From positions 1-36,753 of the IMG/VR virus record IMGVR_UViG_3300040985_000275: DNA of 36,753 nucleotides, one strand, 5' to 3'. This stretch comes from a virus. Taxonomy: Duplodnaviria; Caudoviricetes. The notes beneath the pieces were generated by a model, which saw nothing but the letters and a program-made list of their open reading frames with translations, ran no database searches and was not told the DNA's origin. Made by a program: the position numbers and the translations under genes. Position 1 is the stretch's first letter; every line of letters begins with the position of its first letter. Positions 8,907 to 22,371 of this stretch are shown here, one piece after another.

Positions 8907-8943
8907 TTTATATATATTTTTTAAATTATTTTTTTCTAATGCA

Positions 8944-8990
8944 CAAATAAACGAAAATATTTTATATATCCTACGAAATTTATGGAAATC
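8944..8990 (-). promoter_or_regulatory. Putative late promoter for the terminase operon
   Basis: TTTCCATAAATTTCG box 30 nt upstream of TTTATTTG. Confidence 0.5.
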
Positions 8991-9000
8991 AGTTTTTAAC

Positions 9001-9074
9001 TATAACTATTACTATATCTATATCTATTACTATAAGGGTATAGTAAACCCTTAACCAACCCTTCATTAAGAGTT
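9001..9074. repeat. Iteron/origin-like element A
   Basis: ACTATT/CTATAT-rich tract followed by four heptamers AAGGGTA, AACCCTT, AACCCTT, AAGAGTT at 11-12-nt period; homologous to 20211-20310. Confidence 0.6.
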
Positions 9075-9118
9075 AATTATAAAATTGAATTCTTTTCCAT
9101 TTCCAAAATATATTTAGA

Positions 9119-9163
9119 TTTCCTAAAACTTCTTTGAAATATCAAATAAATACCGTACCTTTG
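9119..9163 (+). promoter_or_regulatory. Putative plus-strand late-type promoter
   Basis: TTCCTAAAACTTC, identical to the box upstream of the head operon, followed by canonical TACCTTTG at the same offset. Confidence 0.6.
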
Positions 9164-9222
9164 AAATCTAATAGGATATACTATTGCTCATATCGCAATT
9201 AGCATATCTAATACCAAAATAT

Positions 9223-9291
9223 ATGTTTAAATTCACTATAGGAAGATTAACAATACAACTATTACCTCCCAAAATAACCTTTAAATTATAA
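9223..9291 (+). CDS. 22-aa cationic peptide MFKFTIGRLTIQLLPPKITFKL
   Basis: First ATG downstream of the promoter at 9119-9163; A-rich leader; TAA stop. Confidence 0.5.
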   Translation: MFKFTIGRLTIQLLPPKITFKL

Positions 9292-9361
9292 AATTGGATT
9301 TGAATTTTGAATGTGTGTGTGTATATGGTTAAAACACCGGGGCTTTGAAATTGACGGAATT

Positions 9362-9416
9362 GCCCCTCCCCTCGCTTAAAATCGCTAAAAATCAGCCCCT
9401 CCCCTGCTGAAAATCA
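9362..9416. repeat. Direct repeats GCCCCTCCCCT(C)GCTnAAAATC x2
   Basis: Copies start at 9362 and 9395. Confidence 0.8.
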
Positions 9417-9702
9417 GGGCTTTAAAGTGCCAAAATGTCAGTAAATAATGACAAAATAAATATAAAAAAAGGCTCTTTTTGTGGGTTTATGTGTGGAAAT
9501 GTGCGCTTTTTGTGTAAAAATTGGCTCTTTGTCAGAGTTTAGCCCGTAAACATACAGGCAAAGCAATCAAATAACCGCCAAAACATTAATAAACTTATAT
9601 ATCTTATTAATTAATTTAAGCACCTCTAAAGGCTTTAAATGTGGTAAGTAATACAAACATACTACAAAGCACCTGAAACGCCCTTAAAACGCTTATAAGC
9701 AT

Positions 9703-9731
9703 AAAAAAAGCCCAACTTAATGGGCTTCTTC
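9703..9731 (-). terminator. Intrinsic terminator (possibly bidirectional)
   Basis: AAGCCCA-ttaagt-TGGGCTT followed by a T-tract on the minus strand; TTCTTCT on the plus strand. Confidence 0.8.
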
Positions 9732-9808
9732 TAATTGCAACAATATAGGATTAAACTTATTCAGATAAATAGCGTCATTATATTGTCATCAATGTCTCTT
9801 TTGTTCAT
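9731..9808 (-). CDS. Small ORF MNKRDIDDNIMTLFI*ISLILYCCN with internal TGA
   Basis: ATG preceded by an AACTAACTAAAAC leader; TGA at 9761-9763; TAG abuts the terminator. Confidence 0.35.
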
Positions 9809-9824: not shown

Positions 9825-10973
9825 TTAGTAATTACTTATATTATCTCGTCTCATTATGTCTCCTGTGCTACTATGCTCAACCGCTTCATCTCTTAGTATG
9901 GCGTCATCTTCATAGTCAGAGTAAATCGCACACTCTTGACAATATGTATATCCGTTATCCTCGCAATAAAGCTCATCTCCTTCCTCTATTCTATCGCTAC
10001 ACTCATCACAAGTGCAACCCTTATCGTTTCCGTTGCTTCCATCAGTTTGATTTAGTGCAATGTCGCAATCGTCATAGTCTCTCTGATATTCGTTGTCATC
10101 TATTCCTTGGAAAGTATCCGCATACGGGAAATAATCAAACCCTAGTGCTTCTTTACCCTCTATTAATACAGAAGCAAAGTTATCACTAGGAGCGCTTAAA
10201 CTATCTGCTAGGCGTGTATTTTTGCTAGTATCTAGCAAGTGCCTAAAGTGGCTTATTGAGTAGCAATTAATAAAAGGTTCTAAAATGTCTTCACATAGTG
10301 CCGTGTACAATTGCGCCTGATAAACCGCCTTTGTATCATCATTACAACACAAAGAATTAGCAATGTATATCCTATCTAAATAAAAAGTATTTTTGACTTT
10401 AGGGTTGCCGTTGTGCTTATCCGCCCAAAGTAAAGCCCTAGCGTAAATATTGCCGTCCTCGTCTTCTAGCGTTGCAATTCTTAAACCTTTAGTATATTTG
10501 TATACATCAAACCAATTTTTCGGTCTCTCTTGCATACAGGAAACGCCACGCCCTACAAACATACGCCTGCCGTTGTCGTTCACTTGGTCGGTATTCATAT
10601 TGTAAATAGTAGGTATCTCATCAGCCTGATATATGTTGTACTTTAACGGAACGCCCTTTATTATATCCTTTGCAAAACTATCTGCAATAACTCTAAAAAG
10701 GCTTTCGTTGTAGCTTATATTTTTAGCTAGTAGGCTCTCTATAAATTTAAGCGGTTTTACTCCTTGAAAGTATTTACTCCTATGCTCGTCATTTTTATGG
10801 TCTATGACTATTCCTGTATTCTCTAGTATCCCAACTATTTTGCGGTTATCAATGGTGCTGATATTTAGCGGGTTGCCTTTTTGCCTTGCATAGTATAAAG
10901 GCGGGTTTTTCTTCTCTAGTGAGAAGCCTAGCGTCTCTAGGGTTTTCTTGTAGTTGTTGATTAGTTGTTTCAT
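9825..10973 (-). CDS. Conserved-type phage early protein of unknown function with C-terminal Cys motifs
   Basis: 382 aa; SCM, ARALLW, YLDRIY, FPYADTF motifs; CxxC pairs at the C-terminus. Confidence 0.8.
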   Translation of the reverse strand: MKQLINNYKKTLETLGFSLEKKNPPLYYARQKGNPLNISTIDNRKIVGILENTGIVIDHKNDEHRSKYFQGVKPLKFIESLLAKNISYNESLFRVIADSFAKDIIKGVPLKYNIYQADEIPTIYNMNTDQVNDNGRRMFVGRGVSCMQERPKNWFDVYKYTKGLRIATLEDEDGNIYARALLWADKHNGNPKVKNTFYLDRIYIANSLCCNDDTKAVYQAQLYTALCEDILEPFINCYSISHFRHLLDTSKNTRLADSLSAPSDNFASVLIEGKEALGFDYFPYADTFQGIDDNEYQRDYDDCDIALNQTDGSNGNDKGCTCDECSDRIEEGDELYCEDNGYTYCQECAIYSDYEDDAILRDEAVEHSSTGDIMRRDNISNY

Positions 10974-11042
10974 AGTTTGTTATTTTTTAAAATTAATATG
11001 CGACAAATATAAACACACAAAGCAAATAATTTATACAAAGCA

Positions 11043-11084: not shown

Positions 11085-11297
11085 CCCCTACCCTAGCATC
11101 AAATCTAGCAAAAAAAAAATCTGAAAAACCAATATTCTGAAGGGGGTATATAGGAGGTCGCTAGCAGTTTCATAGCAGTTTCATCAGGAACTTTAAAAGG
11201 AACTCCCCTACCCTAGCGCCAACTCTAGTAAAAAAAATAAAAAAAATTTTTTTAAAAAATAAAACGCGTAGGCAGTTTCAACGATATGGCAGTTTCA
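11085..11297. repeat. Two ~120-bp composite units: CCCCTACCCTAGC..CAAnTCTAG-A-tract followed by a GCAGTTTCA pair
   Basis: CCCCTACCCTAGC at 11085 and 11205; GCAGTTTCA at 11164, 11175, 11272, 11289. Confidence 0.8.
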
Positions 11298-11302
11298 CGC
11301 AC

Positions 11303-11331
11303 AAAAAAAGGCTACCATTTCTGATAACCTT
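11303..11331 (-). terminator. Intrinsic terminator
   Basis: AAGGTTATC-agaaat-GGTAGCCTT plus T-tract, downstream of 11356..11631. Confidence 0.65.
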
Positions 11332-11355
11332 ATAAAGCAAAAGCTTTTTCCCTAA

Positions 11356-11631
11356 CTAACTAACATTGTATTTTTTTCCTTGAAATCTTAACTCTAAGAG
11401 CCTATCAAAAGGAATTGTTCTATACCCTTCTTTATGTGTGTCAAACACAAATAACATATTGTAATCTTCAGGGTTAAATGCTCTCTCTCCTCCTTTAAGA
11501 TGTTTTTTAACACCCAATCTAGCGGTCATATCTCTATGTGAGCCGTCTTTTTTTGTAAATGATACGCTGAATATCTTTCCGTCCGTATCGTGTATAATCT
11601 GCTTCGCAGTTTCAGTAGTAATTTTAGTCAT
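11356..11631 (-). CDS. WYL-like SH3 beta-barrel protein
   Basis: FSVSFTKKDGSHRDM...VFDTHKEGYRTIPFDRL pattern. Confidence 0.7.
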   Translation of the reverse strand: MTKITTETAKQIIHDTDGKIFSVSFTKKDGSHRDMTARLGVKKHLKGGERAFNPEDYNMLFVFDTHKEGYRTIPFDRLLELRFQGKKYNVS

Positions 11632-11647
11632 AGTAATTTAGTTTAGT

Positions 11648-11941
11648 TTAGCTATTAAGATTAGCTGAATTATTTGAAATATAGTTGTTGTAATACCCCT
11701 CCTCTCCTTCGTTATAATGCAACTCTAACTCAGAAATAATGAATTTAAAGTCTTTAGAGCCTGTAAATGTTTTAGATTTTTGACAGGGTTCACTATATGT
11801 TACGCTGAATTTATCGCTTTCAGGATGAAATTTCAACACATATACCTCTCCTGTGTTCTCATTTACAAAGTCTAACTTAGGGAAATCATTTCTAATGGAT
11901 TTTTCTAGTTTTTCAAGATTTGTTACTTTTAGCTTAGTCAT
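11648..11941 (-). CDS. Hypothetical early protein
   Basis: 97 aa; first gene after promoter 11980-12011. Confidence 0.75.
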   Translation of the reverse strand: MTKLKVTNLEKLEKSIRNDFPKLDFVNENTGEVYVLKFHPESDKFSVTYSEPCQKSKTFTGSKDFKFIISELELHYNEGEEGYYNNYISNNSANLNS

Positions 11942-11979
11942 AGTTAGTTTAGTTTAGTTAATACTTAGTTAATTCTATG

Positions 11980-15785: not shown

Positions 15786-16931
15786 CTATTTATTTTTTTT
15801 TGACCAATGGTCAGTTAAGTATCTATTGACTATGCTTTTATGCTCCATTGAGCCATCATAGTTATCTGAAATATCCTCATAATCTATCTCGGTTTGATTA
15901 GGGTCTACCTCAGCGTACTCATTTTCTTCCATTCCTACATATATATCGCTAATGCAGTCAGGACAATAAGCATACTCATCTCCTATATCACTTTCTAATA
16001 ATTCAGAACAACCACAATAATAACACTCAAACTCTCCTGTTTCCTCGTTTATCTTTACTTCTTTATTGGCAGTTCCGTAGTCTCCGTACCAATAATTTCT
16101 ACTAGCGCCACTCCAATCTCCCCACTTGCTTCCTCCTGAATAGTTAAAGTCATAATTACCATAGCTAGATGTGTATTGGTATTCATACTTATTACAACCC
16201 AACTCATCTATAAGTCTGTCTACCATAGTTAAGCAGTTGTTAGCGTCATCAAAGATAACTACCTCTTCATCTGAATGAGGTGCGTAATAACCACAACTCA
16301 TATTTGCAACACATACACCTATACCATTCTCTGCTAATTGACCTACATCAGTAATACCACCTGAACTTTCTTTGTATCCGTGATGTGTAATTATTGAATT
16401 TACCTTTTTGCTAAATGCTTTACTGAAAAGCTTTCCTGATATAGAGTTTACGAAATCAGAATTGCCCTTCCTGTCTGCTTGAAAACAATAACCTACATCT
16501 TTAAACCAATCCATATCAGCCTGTCTACTGCCAACGCAACCCATTTCTTCTGAATGAAAGAATGCACACTTAATAACACTTCTAGTAAGTAGCATATATA
16601 GTGCTATTCAAACCCCTACCTTGTCGTCTCCACCTACTCCAACTTGAGTGCCTGTTTCTTTGTTAAAGGCAAATATACAACCTTCGTCATCAAACACTCT
16701 AAAGTCATTATGTATATCGTGTACTGTGTCTGTATGAGATACAATGCAAGGGTATATATCACTATCTCCTTTTGTAATGTATATATTATTCTCTTTAATC
16801 TCTACCTTTGCTTCAGGCACATTTGCAAGGCAAAAGTCTTTAATGTAGGAAATCATAGCATATTCATTCCCGCTTGTTGTTTGAATAGACAATGTGTCTA
16901 TCAGTAAATCTTTTCTTAAGTTTTTCTCCAT
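15786..16931 (-). pseudogene. M20/M28-like zinc peptidase (381 codons) interrupted by one in-frame TGA; read-through or nonsense allele
   Basis: ORFs 16608..16931 and 15786..16595 are in the same frame: SHTDTVH, GGDDKVGV*IALYML, SEEMGCVGS, QADRKG, GYYAPHS. Confidence 0.75.
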
Positions 16932-16965
16932 AATCGTTTAATGTTTAGTTAGTTTTAGTTTAGGT

Positions 16966-17028
16966 TGAATTAAGGGGGAGGAGTTTCAAGCATTTGCCAA
17001 TGGTCTGTTATCTCCAACCCTTAAATTC
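16966..17028 (-). other. Structured 5' leader (long hairpin)
   Basis: GAAUUUAAGGG..GGAG pairs with CUCC..CCCUUAAUUC; lies right after the promoter. Confidence 0.55.
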
Positions 17029-19130: not shown

Positions 19131-19510
19131 TACTTTTTGCTTTTATAATCATCAGTTATTTCTTTTATAAAGCCAAGTAGCCTATGGTCAAATCTATCAT
19201 TGTTATTTTTATGAGAACTCTCAAATATATTTTTGTCTGATTTCTCAATCTCTGCCAATAACTTTTCAGCAGGCGATATGTTGTTAATTTTATACTCAAC
19301 TATATTAGCCATTCTAGGACTTCCGTCATTAGATGTATATCTTGTTGGTACGGACAATGGTATGCTTTCTATATCGTGTCCTTGCTTTCTAAGGCTATGT
19401 ATTATAGCTGAAAGCCTATAAGCTCCATACTGATTAATAGCTTCTTTTTGAGTTAATCTTCTACCTTCTTTTAAGTGTTGTAGAATATCACTAGTTTGTG
19501 TTTTTGCCAT
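19130..19510 (-). CDS. Winged-HTH protein
   Basis: TQTSDILQHLKEGRRLTQKEAINQYGAYRLSAIIHSLRKQGHDI. Confidence 0.8.
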   Translation of the reverse strand: MAKTQTSDILQHLKEGRRLTQKEAINQYGAYRLSAIIHSLRKQGHDIESIPLSVPTRYTSNDGSPRMANIVEYKINNISPAEKLLAEIEKSDKNIFESSHKNNNDRFDHRLLGFIKEITDDYKSKK

Positions 19511-19533
19511 TTTAAAATAGTTTTAGTTAATAA

Positions 19534-19809
19534 TTATACTCCTTCGGTGTTATCTGCTACTGAACATTCTTGTGAGCAGTATCTTATATCGTCCTCTAAC
19601 TCGTCCCCACAAAAACCACAAAAATATTTTTCTCCGTCAGGCTCTTCAAAGTAATCTTCACACTCATCACATATATATCCTTCAGGCTCTGCGTGGTCTT
19701 TACACTCATAACACAATCCGCTCTCTGATATTTGAGCGCCACAACAATAACTTAAGGTGTCTAATTCATACCCTGCATTACAACAGGGACTTGTTAATTT
19801 ATCATTCAT
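19534..19809 (-). CDS. Cys-rich, putative zinc-binding protein
   Basis: SPCCNA, SYCCGA and several CxxC motifs. Confidence 0.75.
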   Translation of the reverse strand: MNDKLTSPCCNAGYELDTLSYCCGAQISESGLCYECKDHAEPEGYICDECEDYFEEPDGEKYFCGFCGDELEDDIRYCSQECSVADNTEGV

Positions 19810-19811
19810 AT

Positions 19812-20099
19812 CTATATAGTTTTTAGGTTATCATAGCCACTAACTCTTGGTAAAAAGCAGTCATCTTTTCTCATTAAACCTCCTATATCGTGTGAAATAG
19901 TAGCTCTTATATCTAGCTTATCTAAGTTATTTTTCTTAGCCCATTTAATATAACCAATAAAACAATCTAGCCATTTTCTATTATCTTTATCTAAGATTGT
20001 CATAGCCATATCAGTTCTGTAATTATCACTTCTCCAAAATTCAGGAAGGTAATCATCAAATGCTTGTGTAATTGTATCAATTTTCTTGTGTAGTTCCAT
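19812..20099 (-). CDS. Hypothetical early protein
   Basis: 95 aa; first gene after promoter 20146-20176. Confidence 0.75.
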   Translation of the reverse strand: MELHKKIDTITQAFDDYLPEFWRSDNYRTDMAMTILDKDNRKWLDCFIGYIKWAKKNNLDKLDIRATISHDIGGLMRKDDCFLPRVSGYDNLKTI

Positions 20100-20145
20100 A
20101 GTTAGTTAGTCGTTTAGTTAAACATTAGTTAGTTGAAATTCTCTG

Positions 20146-20312: not shown

Positions 20313-21398
20313 TTAAAAGTAATGTGTTAATCTAGCAACTTGACCACTTTCTTTATCGTGTATAAAACCTTCGCAAGCTTTTGGAACTCCGCAAAATCCT
20401 TTTCTTGCGTGCCAACTATCAGAAGCAGAAGGACTTCTCATATATTCAACAGTTACTCCAATAAAATCTTTAGCGTCTAGCCATTTATGTTTTACCTTGT
20501 GATGTATATGATGTAAATACCAATATCTAAATTTAGTTTCACTCCACATTTTAGGTTTTTCTTGCGCCATTAACAAAGGAAGTTTATCCATTTTAGCCCC
20601 GTCTCCGTGTTCTAATCCTATAAGATTATTTCCATACTTATAATATTTTCTATTAGCTACGCTTACATCAAAAGAAATATCATCAGCTTTTCTAAACCAA
20701 GATTTAAGAGTGTGTGCTAAATGAAATCCACTCTGATAATCGTGATTACTCATACTATGTAACACATCAACAGGAGCAATTTCCCTAAGCATTTCTATAC
20801 ATTTAACATAAAGCATTAAAGCTATTTCATAATGCTCCCACCATTTACCATCAGTATCCTGATGAGTTCCTTTAGTAGTAGTATTATAAACATTATCTAT
20901 ATGAAGCACATCATTCCCTATACAGAATAAAATACGCTCTACTTCAAAACCCTCTGCTTTATTTATTAAACCTTGAACTCCTTCTAATACTCTACCAACA
21001 GCAGTTTCACTATCATAATTTTCTCCTGTCTCTAACTCATTTGCATACTTTCCAATATGAATATCAGCAGGATTTATAACTAAAAGATGATTACCTTTTT
21101 TTCTTTTTATTGCTTTATAGTCAGGGGAGTATCCTTCTATAAACTTATTTACATTGTCAAATATTTGGCTCTCATCTAAACCGCAATCCTCTTTTGTTAC
21201 TATTGAAAATCTAAAATCTCCACTAGCTGATTGCCAATGTTTAACTGAAACGACATCTTTTTTATCTATACCTCTCTCTACTAAGTGAGTATCTAATGCT
21301 GAATTATCATTTATATTGTCTACTGATTTTGCTCTGTATTTGTAGATAAGGTTTTCTTCCTCAGTTGATAATCTTAATCGTCTACCGTATTCTTTCAT
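20313..21398 (-). CDS. Calcineurin-like metallophosphoesterase
   Basis: ADIHIG, GND, SNHD, EHGD, HHIHH motifs. Confidence 0.85.
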   Translation of the reverse strand: MKEYGRRLRLSTEEENLIYKYRAKSVDNINDNSALDTHLVERGIDKKDVVSVKHWQSASGDFRFSIVTKEDCGLDESQIFDNVNKFIEGYSPDYKAIKRKKGNHLLVINPADIHIGKYANELETGENYDSETAVGRVLEGVQGLINKAEGFEVERILFCIGNDVLHIDNVYNTTTKGTHQDTDGKWWEHYEIALMLYVKCIEMLREIAPVDVLHSMSNHDYQSGFHLAHTLKSWFRKADDISFDVSVANRKYYKYGNNLIGLEHGDGAKMDKLPLLMAQEKPKMWSETKFRYWYLHHIHHKVKHKWLDAKDFIGVTVEYMRSPSASDSWHARKGFCGVPKACEGFIHDKESGQVARLTHYF

Positions 21399-21421: not shown

Positions 21422-21492
21422 AGCAGTTTCAACGGCTTACACACATATACACAGCAGTTTCAATGACTTATGCGCACATACAGCAGTTTCAA
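21422..21492. repeat. Three AGCAGTTTCAA repeats at 31/29-nt period
   Basis: Copies at 21422, 21453, 21482 with related spacers. Confidence 0.85.
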
Positions 21493-21541: not shown

Positions 21542-21570
21542 AAAAAGAGGGAAACTACCCCCTCTCTTTC
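21542..21570 (-). terminator. Intrinsic terminator of the sRNA and lysis operon
   Basis: AGAGGG...CCCTCT followed by a T-tract. Confidence 0.75.
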
Positions 21571-21622
21571 TTTAACTAAACTATGTTACGACTATGAATG
21601 TAGGCGAGCGCCTACTTTTACA
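21542..21622 (-). ncRNA. Putative ~80-nt trans-acting antisense sRNA
   Basis: Own promoter, 5' hairpin GUAGGC-GCUC-GCCUAC, unpaired seed CAUAGUCGUAACAUAGUUUAGUUAAA, intrinsic terminator; no ORF. Confidence 0.65.
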
Positions 21623-21627
21623 CGGTG

Positions 21628-21657
21628 CAAATATAGTGTTTATTTTTTAAATAGCAA
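21628..21657 (-). promoter_or_regulatory. Bacteroidota sigma70-type promoter of the sRNA
   Basis: TTG-N19-TATATTTG. Confidence 0.7.
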
Positions 21658-21659
21658 TA

Positions 21660-21860
21660 CTATTTAGTGGATTTTGCTATATCAGCAATACCTTGACCTA
21701 AAATCAGTACGAGGATTGCGTGATAAAGTTCTGTTGCTGTAGCAGGTTCTACGCCTAATAATGTAGCTAACGCAGGAACTACTACAGAGCTAATTGCATA
21801 CCAAAACTTTTTTGACTTTAACATTTGACCAATAAGGTACTTCTCTAAAAACTTTTTCAT
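21660..21860 (-). CDS. Holin-like small membrane protein
   Basis: KSKKFWYAI...ILGQGIADI; two TM segments; adjacent to the lysin. Confidence 0.65.
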   Translation of the reverse strand: MKKFLEKYLIGQMLKSKKFWYAISSVVVPALATLLGVEPATATELYHAILVLILGQGIADIAKSTK

Positions 21861-21861
21861 T

Positions 21862-22371
21862 TTATCTATTTTTAATTATTAAACTTATGTTTGAACTTAA
21901 TTGATTACTTAATATATAATCCATTAAATAACTATGAGCGATTTTACTTTCTAAAATTTTATCAGGAACTTGCGCTCTATGAGTACCTGTTAATATACAC
22001 CCTCTACTATCGGATGGGTAATTTCCTCTATGAAATAAGATGTAACTTCTATCCTTAACATCTTCTACTAGTAAATGAACATAATCTCTACTAGCACTTT
22101 CTCTTGCTAATCTTATCCTACAAGAATACTCTCCCGAAGGCACGCAAGATACACTTTTTTTATTGTCTTGCCAAGGTAATTCTAAAGTATGTGCAATAAA
22201 TTCTGAATTGCAATATAATTTCCCTAAAACAGACTTATCTGTAAATGTATCTCTGATTAATAACAGACTAGCTCTATCTTCCTTGTCCTCTATACTTTTT
22301 CTTATAGCCATTTTGACTTTTTGAAGCATTTTTAGAATGAATTCCTTTGCGTTTTTTACGAGTATTTCCAC
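21862..22371 (-). CDS. Putative endolysin (DUF5675, L,D-transpeptidase-like); start uncertain (22371 or an internal Met such as 22311)
   Basis: TLELPW, SCVPSGEY, RSYILFHRGN, DSRGCILTG motifs. Confidence 0.75.
   Translation of the reverse strand: MEILVKNAKEFILKMLQKVKMAIRKSIEDKEDRASLLLIRDTFTDKSVLGKLYCNSEFIAHTLELPWQDNKKSVSCVPSGEYSCRIRLARESASRDYVHLLVEDVKDRSYILFHRGNYPSDSRGCILTGTHRAQVPDKILESKIAHSYLMDYILSNQLSSNISLIIKNR

Follow-up and report, generated by a model that had tools for sequence, protein, structure and literature searches.

A short unit on the minus strand of the phage genome analyzed here (hereafter, the window; 36,753 nt) combines a promoter, a 5' hairpin, a seed region and an intrinsic terminator, and appears to specify a small RNA complementary to the start codons of several early genes. 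The proposal of a trans-acting antisense RNA directed at these starts, made in a first-pass annotation of the sequence, is well supported by the ranking of the predicted targets, the conservation of the unit in related phages and the covariation of seeds and leaders. The anatomy, the complementarity, the conservation and the matched change of seeds and leaders are established at the level of sequence comparison, and antisense regulation of the early genes, be it for lytic shut-off or in a carrier state, is in our judgment likely.

The phage and the small-RNA unit

The window is a complete tailed phage genome (36.7 kb, 77-nt end repeat, completeness 100), in which nearly all genes are located on the minus strand and the terminase, portal, protease and tape measure proteins were assigned by PHROGs. 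The host is probably a marine member of Flavobacteriales, as suggested by the TAnnTTTG promoters, the relatives of the terminase (the nearest cultured ones include those of Croceibacter and Cellulophaga phages, at 38-44%) and a relative of the phosphoesterase, at 72%, encoded on a Flavobacteriales MAG contig. The sole other genome match of the phosphoesterase came from a Woesearchaeota bin, which we take as misbinning. No cultured relative of the capsid-like protein was found, and a blastn search of the region against cultured phages produced 15 weak records, none of them useful.

The RNA unit is located between the gene for a 66-aa hydrophobic protein and the phosphoesterase gene:

21862-22329, minus strand: DUF5675 gene, upstream context of the unit
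21660-21860, minus strand: gene for a 66-aa hydrophobic protein with no family match, read as holin-like; upstream context
21628..21657, minus strand: Bacteroidota primary-sigma promoter (TTG at 21657-21655, 19 nt, -7 box TATATTTG at 21635-21628)
21542..~21623, minus strand: predicted small RNA of ~80 nt, no ORF
21600..21615, minus strand: 5' hairpin, 6 bp
21569..21598, minus strand: seed region (anti-AUG part, 21596-21591; anti-AACUA-repeat part, 21581-21571)
21542..21568, minus strand: intrinsic terminator hairpin with U-tract
20313-21398, minus strand: phosphoesterase/exonuclease gene, downstream context; internal control with no predicted pairing

All the elements named in the first-pass annotation, namely, a minus-strand TTG-N19-box promoter, a 5' hairpin, a seed and a terminator with no ORF, are present in the sequence. 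The promoter was identified by the Bacteroidota consensus described in PMC6847099, and the 5' end of the RNA was derived from the 4-5 nt spacing behind the -7 box, with an uncertainty of a few bases; a generic sigma-70 scan yielded 83 sites compared to the 79.7 expected. The unit folds with a z score of -5.06, and none of 200 shuffled sequences was as stable. The seed, described previously as single-stranded, is indeed exposed, but it can close into a weak 4-bp stem, at an opening cost of about 2 kcal/mol. The terminator, which is supported by its fold and by pair changes in relatives, is likely common to the RNA and the upstream late (lysis) operon. A search of Rfam produced no match to the unit at E values up to 1. 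Of eight sequencing runs considered for expression, with RNA shares of 0.09 and 0.05 at best, four were compared with the window; the two labeled as RNA consist of contigs that do not span the unit, and so bear on its expression in neither direction. Judged by its anatomy, the promoter-to-terminator unit is real.

Predicted targets at the early gene starts

Targets were predicted with a pairing model of our own, which approximates IntaRNA and counts the energy needed to open both partners. The four best of the 54 gene starts in the window all belong to early genes (16931, 11631, 11941 and 20099), with scores from -15.5 to -13.3 kcal/mol; the next start, at -8.6, is separated from these by a gap of 4.7, and the median is -3.4. 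A comparison of this kind, against all starts and shuffled controls, had been proposed in the first-pass annotation. The strong and weak predicted targets are as follows:

16927..16951, minus strand: start of the peptidase gene (16931), which comes first after early promoter P2 (box 17040-17033); best predicted target, -15.5 kcal/mol, rank 1 of 54
11625..11648, minus strand: start of the WYL_2-fold gene (11631; Pfam PF10902), the second gene of the P3 unit; -14.6 kcal/mol
11935..11954, minus strand: start of the first gene (11941) behind early promoter P3 (box 11987-11980); -13.4 kcal/mol
20095..20124, minus strand: start of the first gene (20099) behind early promoter P1 (box 20153-20146); -13.3 kcal/mol
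10962..10982, minus strand: start of a 382-aa gene (box 11011-11004); weak, -8.5 kcal/mol
19506..19530, minus strand: start of the HTH_39 gene (PF14090); weak, -8.3 kcal/mol

All four strong duplexes are predicted to cover the AUG. With the seed alone (29 nt), the top three of 53 starts are those at 16931, 11941 and 20099, in agreement with the earlier claim that the seed matches the AUG of the first genes behind early promoters; the strings then given for positions 20097, 16929 and 11939 agree exactly with the sequence. The seed scores were matched by 0 of 500 target shuffles for 16931, 3 of 500 for 11941, 5 of 500 for 20099 and 1 of 500 for 11631, and 16931 is the best site among 4894 windows on both strands, the unit itself aside. 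Among the matches originally listed as weaker, those at 10973 and 19510 are indeed weak, but the one at 11631 is strong (rank 2 of 54) and the one at 9808 is at chance level (63 of 500 shuffles as good), this start opening a frame of only 15 codons. The start of the 382-aa gene is a stronger predicted target in relatives than in the window, and that of the HTH_39 gene is often targeted there (z below -3 in 18 of 34 orthologs).

The P2 operon continues into the gene for a likely replication protein (15783-15127), which we read as an initiator, the sole support being a neighboring PF09524 cluster. The target stretches are unstructured around the start site, so that pairing would occlude the start rather than open it, which argues against activation. 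The 11-mer TTTAACTAAAC alone is not enriched in the window (4 found, 3.3 expected), and an exact search of viral contigs with the 16-mer seed produced 41 matches, none in a related context by inspection; the signal resides in position and the combined seeds, not in the 11-mer alone.

Several other features were noticed at these loci. The P2 leader opens with a hairpin (16958-17028, minus strand) that is located upstream of the open target site, varies in length and sequence and is kept in most relatives; it is possibly a 5' stabilizer. The peptidase gene is interrupted by an in-frame TGA (16608-16610), where 23 of 26 distinct variants have TGG (Trp); the same TGA recurs in relatives L129 and L057/L058. 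Genome-wide recoding of TGA was rejected, given that there is one recurring site only and no other such site; the split may be tolerated, or the stop may be read through at this particular site. A second antisense-like run, of GUUAGUUAG repeats (11347-11362 and 11308-11331, minus strand), is found at the stop of the WYL_2 gene, directly ahead of a terminator; it was absent from those loci of relatives that were checked.

Conservation and matched change of seeds and leaders

A relative of the phosphoesterase is encoded in 355 viral stretches, of which 80 were fetched; a lysin query yielded 38 loci. The promoter-seed-terminator unit was found at the same place in 82 of the 88 loci that contain the phosphoesterase gene (44 distinct units, including that of the window), and the six exceptions come from a larger group of two-strand phages. 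In metagenomes, 46 distinct units were identified by a pattern that omits the promoter; a TAHHTTT(G/A) box nevertheless lies 14-17 nt upstream in 38 of these, compared to a background of 2.5%, and the terminator is present in 45. In four complete relatives searched with the model, each genome had a single unit.

The RNAs fall into several seed types, of which types B and D have a GUGUUU loop, and types A and C do not. Among 33 RNAs of the common type (type B and close), both partners vary in 14 of the 23 base pairs; in the terminator, this holds for 7 of 13 pairs, with 98.8% of the cells paired, and the 5' helices are 75-80% paired, the common-type structure having been drawn by eye, with RNAalifold recovering the terminator only and not the 5' stem. 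The five type-A RNAs keep the 5' hairpin, with four different stem sequences and the same fold, along with a nearly invariant seed core. The window's RNA escapes detection by the model derived from type-B RNAs, so the homology between the RNA types rests on position, anatomy and shared UAGUU repeats; the window contains no GTGTTTTC-type copy. A reading in which the opposite strand encodes a small peptide, the seed being the early-type start region of that gene, draws on the resemblance of the plus strand to an early leader with ATG codons; however, 16 of 64 distinct units contain no ATG, the frames range from 1 to 54 codons with no conservation, and no plus-strand -7 box is present near the unit, which makes this reading extremely unlikely.

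Side observations in other phages include G167 (L254-L255), which has a genome of 28.5 kb and encodes a related lysin. It has neither a match to the RNA model nor AACUA-repeat leaders, the one instance in which both are missing together. In the distant two-strand group (L115 1985-2100; L120 ~1974-2080; L121 1150-1290; G158-G162), a promoter is followed by a UUCAUAAU anti-start stretch and a long-loop terminator; these UUCAUAAU units resemble the Bacteroidota RNA FopS in layout, and their targets show no clear enrichment.

Target prediction in the relatives, with z scores calculated against a background of 40 of the 631 late-side starts, gave a z below -3 for 94 of the 687 early-side starts versus 10 of the 631 late-side starts. 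Among the early starts, the sites concentrate at the first genes behind promoters (36 of 78, versus 58 of 609 other early starts), this class having been defined without reference to the RNA. The phosphoesterase, also promoter-first, reached this threshold in none of 13 orthologs, and in the family of the gene at 19809, a site was found in 11 of 26 cases when the gene is first and in none of 5 when it is not. The pairing site follows the promoter rather than the gene. For 45 of the 78 promoter-first starts, no more than 3 of 60 shuffled RNAs scored as well. The peptidase leader ranked first in 6 and among the top three in all 8 complete relatives that carry the gene; in relative L130, where the peptidase gene is absent among the starts, 1 of 55 starts scored -10 or better. 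When accessibility was left out, 12 of 30 promoter-first starts fell in the top tenth, these duplex energies being noisy because the GC-rich 5' stem pairs spuriously.

As a control, we used a sample that lies outside the true host, namely, 276 host-like starts taken from five genomes that belong to its likely order. These bear on the reading whereby host mRNAs are the main targets, silenced in the manner of FopS by way of a generic anti-start seed, with the phage matches being secondary. The type-B RNA reached -13 kcal/mol on 2 of the 276 starts; the window's RNA, which has no type-B loop, did so on none of them versus 4 of its own 54, although the sample is small and the true host is outside it, and the seeds track the phage leaders. 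We consider host silencing very unlikely as the main role.

The leaders differ together with the RNAs. AAACAC is found in the leaders for 28 of the 41 RNAs with the GUGUUU loop and for none of the 9 without it, and conversely, leaders ending in AACUAACU- or AAAUAACU-AUG accompany 7 of the 9 RNAs without the loop and none of the 41 with it. When leaders selected by orthology were paired with own and foreign RNAs, the own RNA was favored for the peptidase-operon leaders (-17.5 vs -11.2 kcal/mol; 0 of 200,000 permutations as extreme), the HTH_39 leaders (-11.2 vs -9.0, p 0.006), the 380-aa gene leaders of 6 genomes (-11.2 vs -6.7, p 0.0016) and the P1 gene leaders (-12.3 vs -10.8, p 0.023), and across ten seed types, the p values were 0.020, 0.002 and 0.001 by three measures, although the own type ranks first for only 2, 3 and 5 of the 10 leader types; because the genomes are related and types A and C are confined to one clade, independent switches are few and the permutation p values are too favorable. 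For the peptidase leader, the own RNA is the best in 4 of 9 genomes and the second best in the other 5, and private seed/leader matches exist in single lineages, for example, L053, L113 and L134. The covariation anticipated in the first-pass annotation is thus apparent as joint change of seeds and leaders between types, but not as fine covariation within type B (32 RNAs; p 0.83, 0.63, 0.10).

A tree built from 55 phosphoesterases places types A and C in one supported clade, where they are mixed with B, so the A/C versus B split may represent one to three events. Near-identical phosphoesterases accompany different RNA types (L042 has type A and L043 has type C), and the unit appears to have been exchanged between phages by recombination.

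These results can be set against a simpler reading, whereby the hairpin does nothing but terminate the late operon. The AACUA repeats would then serve to enhance translation or to bind a protein as an operator motif, and their inverted copy would be a DNA site or a relic, with no RNA pairing involved. A late operon requires a terminator anyway, A-rich leaders favor initiation in Flavobacterium (PMC6847099), and no RNA signature emerged when 20 seed/site pairs were examined for G:U wobbles (of 42 mismatches, 6 keep a wobble and 10 are mirror changes). Against this reading stand a dedicated promoter box at a fixed distance, a 5' stem that is kept despite full sequence replacement and two seeds that switch partners along with the leaders, and the AACUA-repeat motif occurs in just 1 of the 276 host-like leaders. 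Overall, we regard this reading as quite improbable.

Comparison with known RNAs and the proposed function

The RNA works, by prediction, like the Bacteroidota RNAs FopS and GibS and the phage RNAs C4 and CI but is a member of none of these families. The first-pass annotation cited CI of phage P4 and C4 of phage P1 as precedents; these are similar in their working, but the closest mechanistic precedent, by analogy, is FopS/GibS (RF04319; PMC11697453, PMC7366714), RNAs described as 65-80 nt long, with a 3' terminator and a long A/U-rich start-region seed. FopS further resembles the phage RNA in its Bacteroidota primary-sigma promoter and in pairing at the starts of the first genes of polycistrons, the latter being, for the phage RNA, a prediction. 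The common type among the relatives also has a GUGUUUUCAU-like stretch that is found in the FopS consensus and may reflect convergence on the common Bacteroidota start context. Unlike FopS, which is represented by multicopy paralogs, the phage RNA is single-copy, phage-encoded and aimed at the phage's own early genes, and it has a 5' hairpin, whereas FopS is described as consisting of a 5' stretch that is single-stranded and, after it, the terminator only (PMC11697453). FopS binds RbpB and represses translation in vitro; the phage RNA is known from sequence alone. The FopS model (RF04319) produced no match on the window's unit and nothing over the cut-off in 10 phage records; one type-B unit scored 28 bits, compared to the 56-bit gathering cut-off.

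The C4 RNA of P1/P7 (RF01695) is likewise a phage-encoded, trans-acting antisense RNA that restrains phage genes. C4 has two separate seeds, and type-specific seed/target pairs covary between phages; the two seeds of the RNAs described here also covary with their targets between phages, in few independent lineages. C4 controls one operon (icd-ant) in the protein-repressor circuit of a temperate phage (PMC8198154) and is encoded in the operon of its antirepressor; in contrast, the phage RNA addresses three or four operons, by prediction, from its own promoter and with its own terminator, and its unit lies between the lysis genes and the phosphoesterase. The Rfam C4 model gave no match at E values up to 1 in the window and up to 10 on the unit, and antirepressor and integrase families were not detected among the 52 proteins scanned. 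With P4 CI, the candidate would share repression by RNA alone, a replication-gene operon as target and two target sites (PMC4825925). However, CI is processed from the leader it controls, with the targets flanking it, and causes premature transcription termination and immunity, whereas the phage RNA gene is located 1.5-10 kb from its targets and the predicted pairing covers start codons. Lambda OOP and aQ, P22 sar and BTP1 STnc6030 (PMC12197685) likewise pair with their targets to adjust phage development or keep out superinfecting phages, but each overlaps a single target, unlike the trans-encoded RNA with several imperfect targets considered here. In the largely open-access literature searched, we found no description of such an RNA in Flavobacteria phages; supplementary catalogs of viral structured RNAs could list the motif.

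From the features described above, we infer transcription of the RNA, pairing in the cell, repression, its timing and a role in the life cycle. The probable scenario is that a trans-acting antisense RNA blocks early translation, resulting in delayed shut-off in a lytic phage, with superinfection exclusion as a by-product. The host RNA polymerase would make the ~80-nt RNA from its own promoter, late transcripts that end at the common terminator might supply more of it, and the RNA, protected at both ends, would accumulate with time and genome copy number. It would then pair with the unstructured early leaders, which present an AACUA-repeat "address" and the AUG. In most relatives, this would involve two seeds, with the apical loop pairing to AAAACAC and a single-stranded segment to the AACUA repeats; in this phage, one extended seed would reach the AUG. 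Initiation in Flavobacterium is described as dependent on low structure and upstream adenines (PMC6847099), and ribosome loading would fall because Bacteroidota initiation requires an open A-rich stretch ahead of the AUG. GibS and FopS are reported to repress Bacteroides mRNAs by start-region pairing (PMC7366714, PMC11697453), and FopS, to act on polycistrons at their first genes, the genes farther downstream being affected as well (PMC11697453). A block of the first gene by the phage RNA may similarly silence whole operons by polarity, including the likely replication-protein operon. The outcome would be a delayed shut-off of the early genes, and later-arriving phages of the same seed type would be excluded. 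Such lytic feedback is favored by the host-type promoter, the terminator common with the late operon and the fact that no integrase, resolvase or ParA was found.

With the same pairing, the RNA could instead act as a repressor that confers immunity while the phage persists in a non-integrated form, as a carrier state or like a plasmid, the seed types being immunity groups, an alternative also raised in the first-pass annotation. The strongest target heads the likely replication-protein operon, the seed types are swapped between near-identical phages (L042 and L043), cross-type pairing is about 6 kcal/mol weaker, the host-type promoter could fire without phage proteins, and P4 CI provides a precedent (PMC4825925). 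The observation that the phage has no recognizable integrase holds, with a tyrosine integrase found in none of 10 complete genomes, but no feature in support of a carrier state was found: resolvase and ParA-type ATPase were each detected in none of 5 genomes, and no unit was found in 151 sampled genomes of the host order, a weak test given the type-B model used. Furthermore, all 66 metagenome matches are on contigs of at most 38.1 kb, and the unit lies at the end of the late operon, with no lysogeny module beside it. Such a carrier-state role thus seems unlikely. A bolder and rather doubtful extension is that an RNA-only master switch replaces the protein repressor throughout a widespread marine phage family, reading a bar-code in every early leader and imposing a dormant non-integrated state or a dose-dependent (multiplicity-sensing) arrest, with immunity groups swapped by recombination.

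Early shut-off in Bacteroidota phages that lack a repressor or an RNA polymerase of their own is poorly known, and so is mutual exclusion of co-infecting Bacteroidota phages. If the antisense model is correct, a simple answer would be one RNA that reaches the entire early regulon by way of a motif repeated in its leaders. Seed/leader variants occurring in nature are ready-made compensatory pairs, which can be assayed with reporters in a laboratory Flavobacterium and do not require the phage, and matched pairs could act as orthogonal translational repressors in Bacteroidota, which ignore Shine-Dalgarno sequences.

Two further features of the genome were noticed. Between the early region and the small genes that precede the terminase, a stretch of ~900 bases without a long ORF (8907-9808) contains several hairpins and G-rich runs and is possibly a packaging or origin region. 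The TTGAAACTGCT motif has 15 matches (at most 1 mismatch), all on the minus strand, compared to 1.4 expected, including those at 21422-21492 and 11163-11296 of the window; three-copy TTGAAACTGCT clusters, often with the copies 17-18 nt apart, occupy the matching place in most complete relatives and are possibly sites for a DNA-binding protein.
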